64,000 bases of DNA, taken from NCBI GenBank assembly GCA_044220955.1, contig JBGAQA010000031.1:1-64000 (forward strand), written 5' to 3'. The stretch comes from Sandaracinaceae bacterium. Lineage in GTDB: Bacteria > Myxococcota_A > Polyangia > Polyangiales > Sandaracinaceae. Position 1 is the first letter of the stretch; the number at the start of each line of letters is the position of its first letter. Below, in pieces: positions 11,201-14,200 of this stretch. The position numbers are program-made.

Positions 11201-14200
11201 GAACGACGGCGACGTGCAGAAGCAGCTCGGCCGCGCGTACATGCGCGCGGGCGACGTGCAGCGGAGCGTGGCCGCGTACCGGCGCTACCTCGCGCTGAGC
11301 CCGGACGCCGCCGACCGCGCGATCATCGAAGGCATCATCGCCCAGCACTGACGAGCTTCTCACGGACGCTGGGGCGCCGTGCTCGTGGCCCGGCGCTCTC
11401 CGTCGGGAAGTTGCCCGCGCGGTCGATGTCGTAGAGGGTCCGGCCATGAGACACGCCCTGCTCGCTCTGCTCGCCTCGCTCGTCCTGATCGCCACCGCCT
11501 CCGCCGAGGCGCAGGGCGGCAAGCGCGAGCCCGTCCCGGCAGCGCAGGGGAAGCGAACGATCCAGCGACCGAGGACCGCGCCCCAGCGTGCCGCGAGGTG
11601 GATGCGCGATCCCGCGGGCCAGTGGCAGCTCCGCGGCACCAGCAGCCGCTGAGCAGCGCGATCTCCCGGCGGACGCGGGCCCTCAACGCGGCGCGAGGAA
11701 CTCGCCGACGAAGTACGGCCTCCCCGCCACCCTGAGGGTGCGCGCGAGCGAGAGTCGGCCGTCGGACGCGACGTCGAGCACCACGAGCACGTCCGAGTCG
11801 CGGTCGGCCACGTAGAGGTGCGCCCCGTCGCGCGAGAGCGCCATGGAGCGAGGGTGCATCCCGCCCGCCGGCTCGTGCTCGACGAGCGTGAGCCTCCCGC
11901 TCGACGGGTCCCGCGCGAACACGACGACGCTCTCGTGGCCGCGGTTCGAGCCGTACACGAAGCGATCGTCCCGCGACACCAGCACCTCCGCGCACGCGTT
12001 GGTCCCGGTGAAGCCCGTGGGGAGCGTCGGGACCGTCTCGACGCTGGCGAGGGCGCCGTCGACGCCGACCGCGAAGACGTCGATGGCGCTACCGAGCTCG
12101 TCGATGACGTACGCGAAGCGGCCGTCCCGTGAGAGCGCGAGGTGTCGGGGCCCCGCCCCCGCCGCGGTGCTCGCCACGCTGGCCGGCGTGAGCAACCCGC
12201 CGGCGCCGATCCGGCGGACCACCACCGTGTCGTCGCCGAGGCAGGGCACGTAGAGGACGTCCCCCGCGGCGCTCGGTACGACCTGGTGCGCGTGGGCGCA
12301 GGTCACCGCGTCGCTCGACGCAGGCCTCGAGAGCGCCCCGGAGCCGTCGAGCGCGTAGACCGACACGCGCCCGGACCCGTACGACGCGACGAAGACGTGC
12401 TGCCCGGCGGGATCGAGCGCGACGTGCGTCGGGCCGCCCAGCGCGGGCTGGCGCTCCGTCACGGTGGTGGTGCCGTCGCGCGCGACGTCGATCGACGCGA
12501 CCTCGTCCGCGCTCTCGTGGACGACGTAGAGGTGCGCGCCGTCCGCGCTCGCCGCGACGAACGAGGGGAAGTCCCCGGTCCGCGCGCGCGCGAGCTCTCG
12601 CAGCGTGGCGCCATCGAGCGTGACGAGGTCGCCCGTCGCGAGGCCCACGTACACGAAGGTGCGCGTCGGCAGGCCCGCGTCCGCGCCGGCCTCCGCGCCC
12701 GCCGCATCGCTCGGCGTGGCGTCGTCGCTGCCGCTCGTGTCGCGCGCGCGCGCGCCGTCCTGCGCCGCTCCCGCGTCGCGCCCGCCGTCGACGCCGGCGC
12801 CGGTCGTCGCGCAGGCGGCGAGCAGGATCGGTACGACCAGCCACGCGCGCATCGAAGCAGAGCGTACACGCGGGTCAGCGCCAGCGCGCACGCAGCGATC
12901 GAAGATCGATCGGCGGCCCCATCGCCTCGTCGTCGAGGTCGAGCCAGCGATCGAGCGCGTGCGCGCCGCCGCCGACGATCGGCCAGGGCGGCGGAGGTGC
13001 GATCCAGGTTCCGTCGTCGTGCCGCATGTGACGGCGGTCCGACGCGAACGTCGCGACGTAGCTGCCGGCCTCGATCCGCCGGAAGCGCGGAGCGAGCGCG
13101 GGAGGCGCGAGGGGATCGAAGCTCGCGTCCAGCCACGCGCACGCGGCGAGCGGCGCCCCCGCCGTGCAGTCGAGGTCCCAGACCTCGATGCCCTGCGCGG
13201 CGCGGACCGCGAGCACGACGTGGTAGTCCCAGAGGACCGGCTCGCCCGACGCGCTCGCGCGCTGCGCGCTCATCTGCACCGCGCGCGCCGCGTTCGACAC
13301 GATCACGGCCTCGGCGGCGAGCCCGGCGAAGCGCGCTTCCTGCGCGAGCCACCAGACGTTCTCCTCGCAGTAGCTCGGCGCGTAGCGATGCGGGGCCAAG
13401 GCGACGAGGCTAACGCGCGCGCGCGATCAGCGCCCGCCCGTCCGCGGCCCTCGGAGCGACTGCGTCGTCGCGCTCCGGTGGCCGCGCCGCGCGTTGCGCA
13501 GGATGGCCTCCGCGAACTCGTCGGCAACGCGGGGGCCGTCCGCGGTCACCAGCCGCCCGTCCGTGACCACGCTGCTGGTGTGCTGCACGTACGCGCCGGC
13601 GGCGCCGAGCCCCGCGAGCTCGCTCGCGTACGCCGTGACCTTGCGCCCCGTGAGCAGCCCCGCGCGCGCGAGGATGGTGGGCGCGACGCAGATGGCCGCC
13701 AGGACCTTGCCGCTCGCGTCGGCCTCGGTGGCGATCCGGTGCGCCTCGGCGTCGTCGAAGTAGGTGCGCGCGCCCTGCCCTCCCACGAAGATCACGGCGT
13801 CGTACGCCTCGACGCGCACGGCATCGAGCGCGATCGACGCGAGGGCGCGGCCTCCGTGCATCCCCGTGCACGGACCGGCCGTCCGGCTCGCGACCACGCA
13901 CTGCGCCCCCGCCTCCTCCAGCACCTGCCGGGTGACGAAGAGCTCCTCGTCCCTGAAGTCCTCGGGGGCCACCACGAAGACCGCGCGCATCACGTCGCCA
14001 CCACGACCTGGCACGTAGGCGCGGCCATGCAGGCCGCAAGGCGCAGGTGCCGACGCTGGCGCGCGGATCCCCCCCAGCTCGCGCGCAGGCGGGCGGCCGA
14101 GGACGCCCGCTGGGCGTTTCCGGGACAGAGCGGTGCGCGCTCATCTAGTCTGCCCGCGTGACCTTCCCCACCATGACCTGGCCCGGGCGCGCGGAGCCGC

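Follow-up and report, generated by a model that had tools for sequence, protein, structure and literature searches.

We found that the window (the whole stretch of DNA that was analysed, 64,000 nucleotides of a contig from a Sandaracinaceae bacterium) encodes a 174-residue protein of the family of NTAQ1, an enzyme of animals and plants that turns the first Gln of a protein into Glu and thus marks the protein for destruction. The protein belongs to the family by profile, takes the NTAQ1 fold in a predicted structure and conserves the residues named for catalysis and substrate contact, and the same genome encodes Bpt and ClpP. The reading that this is an NTAQ1-type N-terminal Gln amidase, whose product would most likely enter the Asp/Glu branch of the N-degron pathway (Bpt, ClpS and ClpAP), has in our estimation an even chance of being correct. 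The complete three-tier route, from Gln to Glu, through leucylation by Bpt and on to ClpS/ClpAP, is plausible.

The protein matched the Pfam model Nt_Gln_amidase (PF09764) with an E-value of 1.5e-36 and a score of 126.2 bits, the cut-off being 27. Its residues 6-158 covered positions 1-166 of the 184 positions of the profile, leaving the last 18 positions unmatched; the span was identical to that in the survey's finding, where the E-value had been 4.8e-37. Human NTAQ1 chains matched the protein at 8e-23 in phmmer. The survey had described a full-length NTAQ1 homolog with 34.6% identity to the human enzyme, and this description held, with a profile match above the cut-off and a structural identity of 30-31%. 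The codon composition of the open reading frame (GC3 0.92, GC2 0.57) is the coding signature of the genome and resembles that of the neighbouring genes. None of the 9 open codons upstream of the TTG offers an alternative start, and the closest homologs start at the same position as the 174-residue protein. The genome carries one copy of the gene. Contigs from two other studies span the gene and both of its neighbour junctions without indels, and differ within the gene by two synonymous changes and one replacement, the latter situated in the unconserved tail. NCBIfam holds no model for the protein, and a promoter and terminator scan of positions 11400-14400 returned no sites, such a scan being uninformative at approximately 75% GC. 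The observation of the gene is confirmed, and the protein is full-length and looks catalytically competent, as judged from its sequence and its predicted structure.

Coordinates of the NTAQ1-family gene, its catalytic codons and the two adjacent genes in the window.
Feature	Position	Strand	Basis or remark
7-bladed beta-propeller lactonase, downstream of the NTAQ1-family gene	11683..12891	-	Pfam PF10282, 1.9e-73
NTAQ1-family gene (Nt_Gln_amidase, PF09764)	12875..13399	-	174 aa, TTG start; ORF and Pfam
NTAQ1-family catalytic codon D75	13177..13175	-	
NTAQ1-family catalytic codon H60	13222..13220	-	
NTAQ1-family catalytic codon C11	13369..13367	-	
DJ-1/PfpI family protein, upstream of the NTAQ1-family gene	13427..14014	-	Pfam PF01965, 1.5e-34

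The AlphaFold model of the protein (pLDDT 95.5, pTM 0.91) showed the NTAQ1 fold, an alpha-beta-alpha sandwich of the papain/transglutaminase-like type. When compared with 15 human NTAQ1 entries, this predicted structure gave TM scores of 0.85-0.89 and rmsd values of 2.2-2.7 Å, and the next-best fold was that of protein-glutaminase, with a TM score of 0.41. The catalytic triad of human NTAQ1 is given as Cys28/His81/Asp97 in a structural paper of 2024 (PMC11168063) and in PMC4214742, and the former describes Glu29, Asp79 and His148 as contacts of the alpha-amino group and Tyr80 and Met149 as contacts of the backbone. In a residue-by-residue alignment, C11 corresponded to Cys28, H60 to His81 and D75, the earlier Asp of the WDLD motif, to Asp97. 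Likewise, E12, D58 and H124 aligned with the three alpha-amino contacts, and Y59 and M125 with the two backbone contacts, the numbering having been counted by hand from the alignment with the human chains. The triad had been proposed in the survey (C11, H60 and the Asp of WDLD) and is now confirmed against the solved structures and the structural paper. All eight functional residues were invariant in 34 of 34 homologs and also in 81 of 81 homologs of a second set, in which C11 and E12 were fixed by the scan pattern and D58, Y59, H124 and M125 were free to vary.

Human and animal NTAQ1 (PDB 4W79, 3C9Q, 6KGJ, 8JJF-8JK2) and the protein described here share the Pfam family, the fold, the triad and the substrate contacts; they are also alike in their similar size, in consisting of one domain and in having no signal peptide. 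They differ in sequence (approximately 31% identity), and the 174-residue protein is shorter at the C-terminus, where its match to the profile ends at position 166 of 184. The setting differs as well, since the host has no ubiquitin system, ATE1 or UBR. The downstream partners, if any, would be Bpt, ClpS and ClpAP, whereas eukaryotic NTAQ1 is followed by ATE1, UBR and the proteasome. The other N-terminal amidases, yeast Nta1 and animal NTAN1, take an equal place in the pathway, converting a tertiary into a secondary destabilising residue, but belong to unrelated families.

In the proposed pathway, the protein would be a cytosolic cysteine amidase, consistent with the lack of a signal peptide, which would bind a free N-terminus starting with Gln and hydrolyse the side-chain amide to leave an N-terminal Glu. 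C11 would serve as the nucleophile, with H60 and D75 completing the triad; contacts to the alpha-amino group would come from E12, D58 and H124, and those to the backbone from Y59 and M125. Both the amidase activity and the specificity for N-terminal Gln are thereby predicted from family, fold and conserved residues. MetAP does not expose N-terminal Gln, so the substrates would need an endoprotease. After the deamidation, Bpt would attach Leu to the Glu formed at the N-terminus; this Leu would then be recognised by ClpS and the protein degraded by ClpAP. Gln would on this view rank as a tertiary destabilising residue. Bpt is known to accept the type of substrate that an N-terminal Gln amidase produces (Graciet 2006, cited in bioRxiv 10.1101/2021.07.26.453911).

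The closest known counterpart of the later steps is the Vibrio vulnificus Leu/N-degron pathway, in which Bpt leucylates N-terminal Asp and Glu and ClpS-ClpAP carries out the degradation. As outlined in the sources consulted, the known bacterial pathway comprises primary and secondary destabilising residues only, and an amidase would extend it by a further tier. The likeness to this branch lies in the Bpt and ClpP of the genome and in the clpS-clpA pair of a congener, whereas ClpS, ClpA and Aat were not found in the bin itself. The survey had placed Bpt beside NTAQ1 in one genome, and we recovered it on contig C227 as an intact open reading frame of 254 residues with both domains (ATE_N 2.5e-16, ATE_C 1.7e-33); its Asp/Glu specificity is assumed from family membership. 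The E. coli control genome yielded no Bpt, although E. coli possesses ClpS, ClpAP and Aat. A predicted complex of Bpt with the amidase scored 0.03 against a mark of 0.32, which speaks neither for nor against binding.

The survey had also raised the concern that ClpS, ClpA and Aat were missing from the bin, and they were again not found: ClpS and Aat gave no match in this bin (87.9% complete), and no ClpA exceeded the curated cut-off there, the best match reaching 528 bits against 993. The concern was weakened by the congeners and by the contig ends. ClpS is present in two of the six genomes of the genus and Aat in five of five congeners. In the congener G131, clpS adjoins a ClpA of 1079.6 bits (cut-off 993). 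The flanks of this region in our genome stop at the end of contig C235 and at the start of contig C100, and six consecutive genes of the clpS-clpA region of the congener are missing. ClpS and ClpA may be encoded in this strain. At the same time, the genes surrounding clpS, clpA and aat are arranged differently from one congener to another, so a loss of these genes in this strain is possible. An N-terminal Asn amidase of the NTAN1 type (PF14736) was not found in the genome, which is a weak negative, as the same search found a match in no control genome.

Among 86 carriers of NTAQ1, ClpS was found in 81 (33/36 within the order and 48/50 elsewhere) and Bpt in 65 (33/36 within the order and 32/50 elsewhere). 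In the order to which the bacterium belongs, the presence of Bpt is uninformative because Bpt is nearly universal there, occurring in 33/36 carriers and in 186/218 non-carriers. Outside the myxobacteria, Bpt was enriched among the carriers in three of four strata, namely the Melainabacteria-type genomes (5/7 carriers compared with 23/196 non-carriers), the Acidobacteriota (3/3 compared with 15/150) and the Gammaproteobacteria (5/5 compared with 76/150), and no enrichment was seen in the Planctomycetota (2/5 compared with 31/150). Pooled over the strata, Bpt was observed in 15 of 20 carriers against approximately 4.7 expected, the base rates being those of phyla or classes, confounded by clade and genome size, and the carriers within a stratum being close kin. 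The link of NTAQ1 to Bpt and ClpS is one of co-occurrence, with no gene linkage in the 81 loci inspected: no conserved neighbour of NTAQ1 was Bpt, ClpS, ClpA, Aat or a protease. The largest cluster of neighbours was a protein kinase, present in 11 of the 81 loci at varying distance. Of the three-tier pathway proposed in the survey, the enzyme family, its residues and the Bpt of the genome stood, but the lack of linkage and the carriers without Bpt count against it.

These same carriers bear on an alternative that we consider unlikely, yet worth weighing, in which NTAQ1 deamidates N-terminal Gln for another purpose, such as averting the cyclisation to pyroglutamate that would block the N-terminus, or maturing proteins or peptides. 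Searches for Bpt gave no match in 17 of the 50 diverse carriers and a sub-threshold match only in one more; ATE_N was missing in all five of the Bpt-less carriers tested for it. One of the Bpt-less genomes (G448) has its NTAQ1 locus on a 7.5-Mb record titled chromosome and contains Aat and ClpS but no ATE_N. The Bpt-less carriers retain all eight key residues, which implies that NTAQ1 is useful without Bpt in some lineages, and the conservation of these residues in every homolog of the larger set would suit such another purpose. Moreover, the presence of Bpt was unclustered on the NTAQ1 tree (16 changes compared with 15 in shuffles). The lack of linkage to N-degron genes in the 81 loci agrees with such a purpose, and so do the fusions, in which NTAQ1 is joined to a low-molecular-weight phosphotyrosine phosphatase (3 representatives) or to UDPGP (1 representative) and never to an N-degron part; as a clue to function these partners were dropped, having no tie to proteolysis. 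Against this alternative stand the enrichment of Bpt in the non-myxobacterial strata and the occurrence of ClpS in nearly all carriers, and some of the genomes without Bpt are bins that are incomplete, or contigs that may have been binned wrongly (L037 is near-identical to L034, which bears another phylum label). The idea concerning pyroglutamate is a speculation of the present analysis.

The immediate neighbours of the gene were dropped as a clue to its function because neither of them was seen again near NTAQ1 at the other 80 loci. The DJ-1/PfpI gene lies 27 nt upstream on the same strand, and its protein matched the PfpI subfamily of NCBIfam at 1.8e-31, under the cut-off; a contig of independent origin (X3 record 23) spans the junction. 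On the other side, the lactonase gene is listed with a GTG start, which gives it an overlap of 17 nt with the NTAQ1 stop, and an in-frame ATG occurs at 12852, 22 nt past the stop. The lactonase has a lipoprotein-like N-terminus and matched a 6-phosphogluconolactonase-like model at 1.1e-45, again under the cut-off, and its junction with NTAQ1 is spanned by X2 record 9.

Small-molecule enzymes near some of the loci (alpha/beta hydrolase, enoyl-CoA hydratase, DJ-1/PfpI and lactonase) could suggest that the NTAQ1 fold is used on a different substrate, for instance on nutritional Gln-peptides, on a glutaminyl intermediate of a natural product or on internal Gln residues. We regard this as improbable. 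The papain/transglutaminase-like triad does serve other reactions in protein-glutaminase, SseI and LapG, which PMC4214742 lists as structural neighbours. The first of these, from Chryseobacterium proteolyticum (PDB 2KSV, 2ZK9, 3A54), is a bacterial Cys-His-Asp deamidase that converts Gln into Glu and is the closest structural homolog outside the NTAQ family that PMC4214742 names. It is, however, a secreted pro-enzyme acting on internal Gln residues, and it shares only 15-16% identity with the 174-residue protein. We infer from the poor alignment that protein-glutaminase probably does not have the N-terminus-binding residues of NTAQ1. In contrast, the residues for a free alpha-amino group and for the backbone are all invariant in the bacterial NTAQ1 homologs, and the predicted structure is far closer to human NTAQ1 than to protein-glutaminase (TM 0.85-0.89 compared with 0.41). 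No small-molecule neighbour is conserved beyond 7 of the 81 loci (an alpha/beta hydrolase lies immediately upstream of NTAQ1 in 7 loci, and enoyl-CoA hydratase is a neighbour in 7). In addition, the lactonase looks exported, whereas the NTAQ1-family protein has no signal peptide.

The family is widespread in bacteria. We found a relative in 437 species genomes of at least 7 phyla, with 1763 representatives at E<=0.001, and in four of the five other genomes of the genus, the same proportion as in the survey. On the NTAQ1 tree, the copy from the window groups in a Sandaracinaceae clade with an SH-aLRT support of 95. The best 120 matches of two homolog searches, the second of which used a Melainabacteria-type member (188 bits on the Pfam model) as the query, carried bacterial or metagenomic names only and no eukaryotic ones. 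The label "eukaryote-type" used in the survey is misleading because the family is large and coherent in bacteria, and the gene is not a stray eukaryotic one. That it does not work as a bacterial gene, whether as a recent acquisition from a eukaryote that plays no role, as part of a contaminating contig or as a copy in decay, is extremely improbable: the Swiss-Prot-level matches reported earlier were all eukaryotic and NCBIfam lacks a model, but the GC3 resembles that of the neighbours, the relatives are numerous, the gene groups with its own family and recurs in the congeners, its arrangement is identical in the contigs of independent studies and its catalytic residues are invariant. Our search of the literature, like that of the survey, found no paper on a prokaryotic NTAQ1.

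The literature consulted places N-terminal amidases within the Arg/N-degron pathway of eukaryotes. The bacterial NTAQ1 family is conserved and occurs mostly alongside ClpS and often alongside Bpt, and this makes a bacterial tertiary tier directly testable. Cultured carriers include Polyangium fumosum DSM 14668 and Plesiocystis pacifica SIR-1. Should the link to the N-degron pathway fail, a function will still have to be sought for the family, whose N-terminus-binding residues do not vary even in genomes that gave no Bpt match. More broadly, we tentatively suggest, with somewhat less than even confidence, that some bacteria run a three-tier N-degron pathway of an NTAQ1-type amidase, Bpt and ClpS-ClpAP, and that this hierarchy predates the eukaryotes or was donated to them. 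The bacteria to which this reading would apply are the present Sandaracinaceae species, other Myxococcota, Obscuribacterales-type Melainabacteria and some Acidobacteriota and Gammaproteobacteria. If it is true, bacterial proteolysis would have a new regulatory layer, in which cleavage products starting with Gln would act as conditional degrons. All the eukaryotic tiers would then be matched in bacteria, NTAQ1 by NTAQ1, ATE1 by Bpt and the type-2 site of UBR by ClpS, and the finding would bear on the origin of the eukaryotic N-degron hierarchy.

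The window protein, the 174-aa product of the NTAQ1-family gene, matched the Nt_Gln_amidase family (PF09764) at 1.5e-36 and 126.2 bits (Pfam cut-off 27), with residues 6-158 aligned to positions 1-166 of the 184-position profile. The only solved structures that it matched by sequence at E < 0.01 were human NTAQ1 chains (15 distinct sequences, 8e-23 to 2.1e-21). When an AlphaFold2 model built on an alignment of 34 homologs (mean pLDDT 95.5, pTM 0.91) was compared with the PDB by Foldseek, the top 15 entries were human NTAQ1 (query-normalised TM 0.85-0.89, rmsd 2.2-2.7 A, identity 30-31%), whereas the next fold, the Chryseobacterium protein-glutaminase, fitted the model poorly (TM 0.41). 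The survey's finding of a full-length NTAQ1 homolog was thereby borne out, and so were the Cys-His-Asp motifs that it had named. According to excerpts of PMC11168063 and PMC4214742, the triad of NTAQ1 is Cys28-His81-Asp97; the former also describes, in its excerpt, binding of the substrate α-amino group via two waters by Glu29, His148 and Asp79, and of the backbone by the Tyr80 hydroxyl and the Met149 sulfur. In an alignment to human NTAQ1 counted by hand, the triad corresponds to C11/H60/D75, the amino-group ligands to E12/H124/D58 and the backbone ligands to Y59/M125. All eight residues were invariant in the 34-sequence alignment and conserved throughout a set of 81 sequences, one from the window and the others from 80 named loci in genomes; as the peptide pattern [YF]CEEN[VIA]W[WHQ] was used to scan for these loci, it presets C11 and E12 in the latter set but leaves the other six free. 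Neither a signal peptide nor a membrane segment was seen by inspection. From family, fold, key residues and the lack of a signal peptide, the window protein has every known hallmark of an N-terminal glutamine amidase, an activity that is predicted.

The gene is real. Its codon-position GC (GC3 0.92, GC2 0.57) matches the values of surrounding real genes, no alternative start codon occurs within nine open codons upstream of the TTG, and the start position is common to the closest homologs. It is present as one copy in G000, the genome bin of the window. The locus was confirmed by contigs of two other studies (X2 record 9, 11600-13372; X3 record 23, 12897-14100), which span the gene and both neighbour junctions without indels and reveal three variants within the gene, two synonymous and one (E158G) in the unconserved tail. 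At least one fifth of the sampled words of window 11600..14100 were also present in runs of 8 further studies, all but one of them sludge, activated sludge or wastewater metagenomes and one freshwater, and where contigs were compared with this region (four runs, each from a different one of these studies) they fit with few differences.

Features of the amidase locus in the window
Feature	Position	Strand	Remarks
NTAQ1-family gene	12875..13399	-	174-codon open frame, TTG start
DJ-1/PfpI gene	27 nt upstream of amidase	-	Pfam
Beta-propeller lactonase	other flank of amidase	-	Pfam; lipoprotein-like N-terminus

A word-indexed search with the window protein returned 701 proteins at E<=0.001, the best 120 all with PF09764, and an exhaustive search of 50%-identity representatives returned 1763 at E<=0.001, 1028 at E<=1e-10 and 85 at E<=1e-30; named eukaryotic members were absent from the best 120 of either search. 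Relatives were encoded in 437 stretches in a scan of one genome per species, and the best 80 of these belong by record title to Myxococcota, Planctomycetota, Melainabacteria/Obscuribacterales, Gammaproteobacteria, Acidobacteriota and Bdellovibrionota, with one Bacteroidota and one Actinobacteria record. The protein-atlas clusters nearest the window protein were 58-81% bacterial by record. A quick maximum-likelihood analysis of 81 sequences, which left the backbone of the tree unresolved, placed the window protein in one clade (SH-aLRT 95) with four sequences from Sandaracinaceae/Polyangiales. The survey's term 'eukaryote-type' is misleading: NTAQ1 in the window is a member of a bacterial family and not a stray eukaryotic gene. 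Its distribution is patchy, at 36 of 401 genomes in the window's order, 7 of 31 in the family and 4 of 5 other genomes in the genus. Many carriers belong by record title to Myxococcota, Bdellovibrionales/Oligoflexales, Bradymonadaceae, Melainabacteria and Planctomycetota. Such groups are noted for large genomes and for lifestyles that are predatory or complex, and any link to lifestyle may reflect genome size only. Fusions were also seen, with an N-terminal LMW phosphotyrosine phosphatase (PF01451) in three protein representatives (P0181, P0210 and P0255; 311-321 aa) and with a UDP-glucose pyrophosphorylase (PF01704) in one (P0222, 658 aa).

Some sources already label bacterial members 'protein N-terminal glutamine amidohydrolase', and no NCBIfam model matched the window protein. 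Within bioRxiv and the Creative-Commons part of PubMed Central, no paper turned up on a prokaryotic NTAQ1, as in the survey, or on an N-terminal amidase tier in bacteria. By title and abstract, the papers found there that mention both Ntaq1 and prokaryotes concern eukaryotic systems (including PMC4214742 and PMC11441550); PF09764 is given only as the family of the human enzyme in an excerpt of PMC10318531, and for bacteria only secondary residues are listed in an excerpt of bioRxiv 10.1101/2021.07.26.453911.

When all ORFs of at least 80 aa within 6 kb of the amidase were clustered across 81 loci, no widely conserved neighbour emerged, and none of the clusters was Bpt, ClpS, ClpA or Aat. Protein kinases lay near the amidase at varying distances in 11 loci, histidine kinases in 8, enoyl-CoA hydratase in 7, an MFS transporter in 6 and trigger factor in 5 (about 1.5 kb upstream). 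An FHA-domain gene was found directly upstream on the same strand, abutting or overlapping the amidase start, in 6 loci (L019, L027, L050, L051, L078, L085); an alpha/beta hydrolase cluster occupied this position in 6 of its 7 loci (L049, L061, L062, L074, L083, L086), the seventh being 4.9 kb off. Both neighbours are sub-clade-specific. The DJ-1/PfpI and lactonase genes of the window, in which the survey had likewise seen no hint of proteolysis, recurred in 0 of the 80 other loci. The first listed start of the lactonase, a GTG at 12891, gives a 17-nt overlap with the amidase stop (window 12852..12891), and the in-frame ATG at 12852 gives the N-terminus MRAWLVVPILLAAC, which by eye resembles a lipoprotein signal with a lipobox.

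Bpt is encoded in the same genome, as the survey had stated, by a 254-aa ORF with ATE_N and ATE_C on contig C227, and ClpP is present. As in the survey, ClpS and Aat were not found in this bin (87.9% complete, 301 contigs), nor was any ClpA over the curated cut-off of 993 bits, the best match reaching 528. Of the six genomes of the genus, G131 and G151 yielded a ClpS, whereas none was found in G000, G127, G143 or G175; an Aat was detected in each of the five congeners. In G131 clpS adjoins a ClpA gene (1079.6 bits vs 993). The left flank of this region matches contig C235 of G000 until 141 nt from the contig end, and its right-flank gene, with a 94.5% identical protein, begins 231 nt into the 5.6-kb contig C100; clpA, clpS and four intervening genes have no counterpart in G000. 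On the question whether these genes were missed or truly lost, the flanking contig ends form a pattern as from an assembly or binning gap, but this falls short of proof: contig C243 contains a 67%-identical match to one of the genes of the G131 region, and the gene order varies among congeners. It is clpS-clpA-aat in G151 (C231, L096), in G131 (C1:552000-570000, L095) aat lies 1.1 Mb from clpS-clpA, and in G127 (C301, L117) and G175 (C316, L118) aat adjoins neither clpA nor clpS; G143 (C702, L119) was included in this comparison.

In the window's order Bpt was found in 261 of 401 genomes, in 33 of 36 amidase carriers (not in G131, G317 and G344) and in 186 of 218 non-carriers from the three carrier-holding families, the counts of 261 and 186 including four genomes flagged unpublished (G387, G123, G313, G396). 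With 92% of carriers vs 85% of non-carriers holding Bpt, the within-order comparison is uninformative. ClpS was found in 33 of the 36 carriers. Among 50 carriers chosen from 80 as lying outside the order, Bpt exceeded the cut-off in 32, was weak in 1 and was not found in 17, and ClpS was present in 48. Bpt occurred in 5 of 7 labelled carriers of a Melainabacteria-type class (base 23 of 196 non-carriers; the 5 carriers within that sample all had Bpt), 3 of 3 in Acidobacteriota (base 15 of 150), 2 of 5 in Planctomycetota (base 31 of 150) and 5 of 5 in the gammaproteobacterial class (base 76 of 150, including the unpublished G1087 and G985). Summed, this is 15 of 20 carriers vs about 4.7 expected, on coarse base rates (the last three samples were not screened for the amidase) and with carriers that are close kin within a stratum; large genomes also more often hold both genes. 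The Bpt label was not clustered on the NTAQ1 tree (16 changes vs 15 in shuffles). Multiple ClpS-family matches were seen in G444 (six; locus L089) and in G209 and G285 (three each).

The amidase would convert N-terminal Gln to Glu, and the resulting Glu, a known type of Bpt substrate according to the same excerpt of bioRxiv 10.1101/2021.07.26.453911, would be handed to Bpt and then to ClpS-ClpAP. Judged from family, fold and residues, the window enzyme is probably an N-terminal-Gln amidase, and we infer that this hand-over would be its most economical use in the window organism. For the full chain the odds appear about even: the three-tier pathway proposed in the survey gains from Bpt in G000 and its enrichment in three of the four carrier strata outside the order, but loses from the lack of linkage in 81 loci and from the Bpt-less carriers. 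The main rival, in which the chemistry is kept and the link to degradation dropped, is less likely and is needed at least for those carriers. In one of them, G448, whose locus is part of a 7.5-Mb record with the title 'chromosome: 1', ClpS and Aat accompany the amidase in the genome, aat being about 10 kb from clpS, and neither ATE_C nor ATE_N was found; four other tested Bpt-less carriers follow the same pattern. At least one Bpt-less case, that of L037, labelled Oligoflexales, may be a binning artefact: its amidase is almost identical to that of the Melainabacteria locus L034 (0.008 and 0.017 for the tip branches), although the two records bear different phylum labels. Either mis-binning or transfer in the very recent past may lie behind this. 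A different substrate is improbable for an enzyme that shares with human NTAQ1 the residues contacting the α-amino group and the backbone, even though its neighbours in some loci are small-molecule enzymes. An inert or foreign gene is hardly credible given the invariant residues and the bacterial relatives. That the window protein belongs, as a new member from bacteria, to a known family of enzymes is well supported; a role of the amidase as the first tier of the N-degron pathway in bacteria is a good hypothesis that can be tested, and the genomic support for it is mixed.
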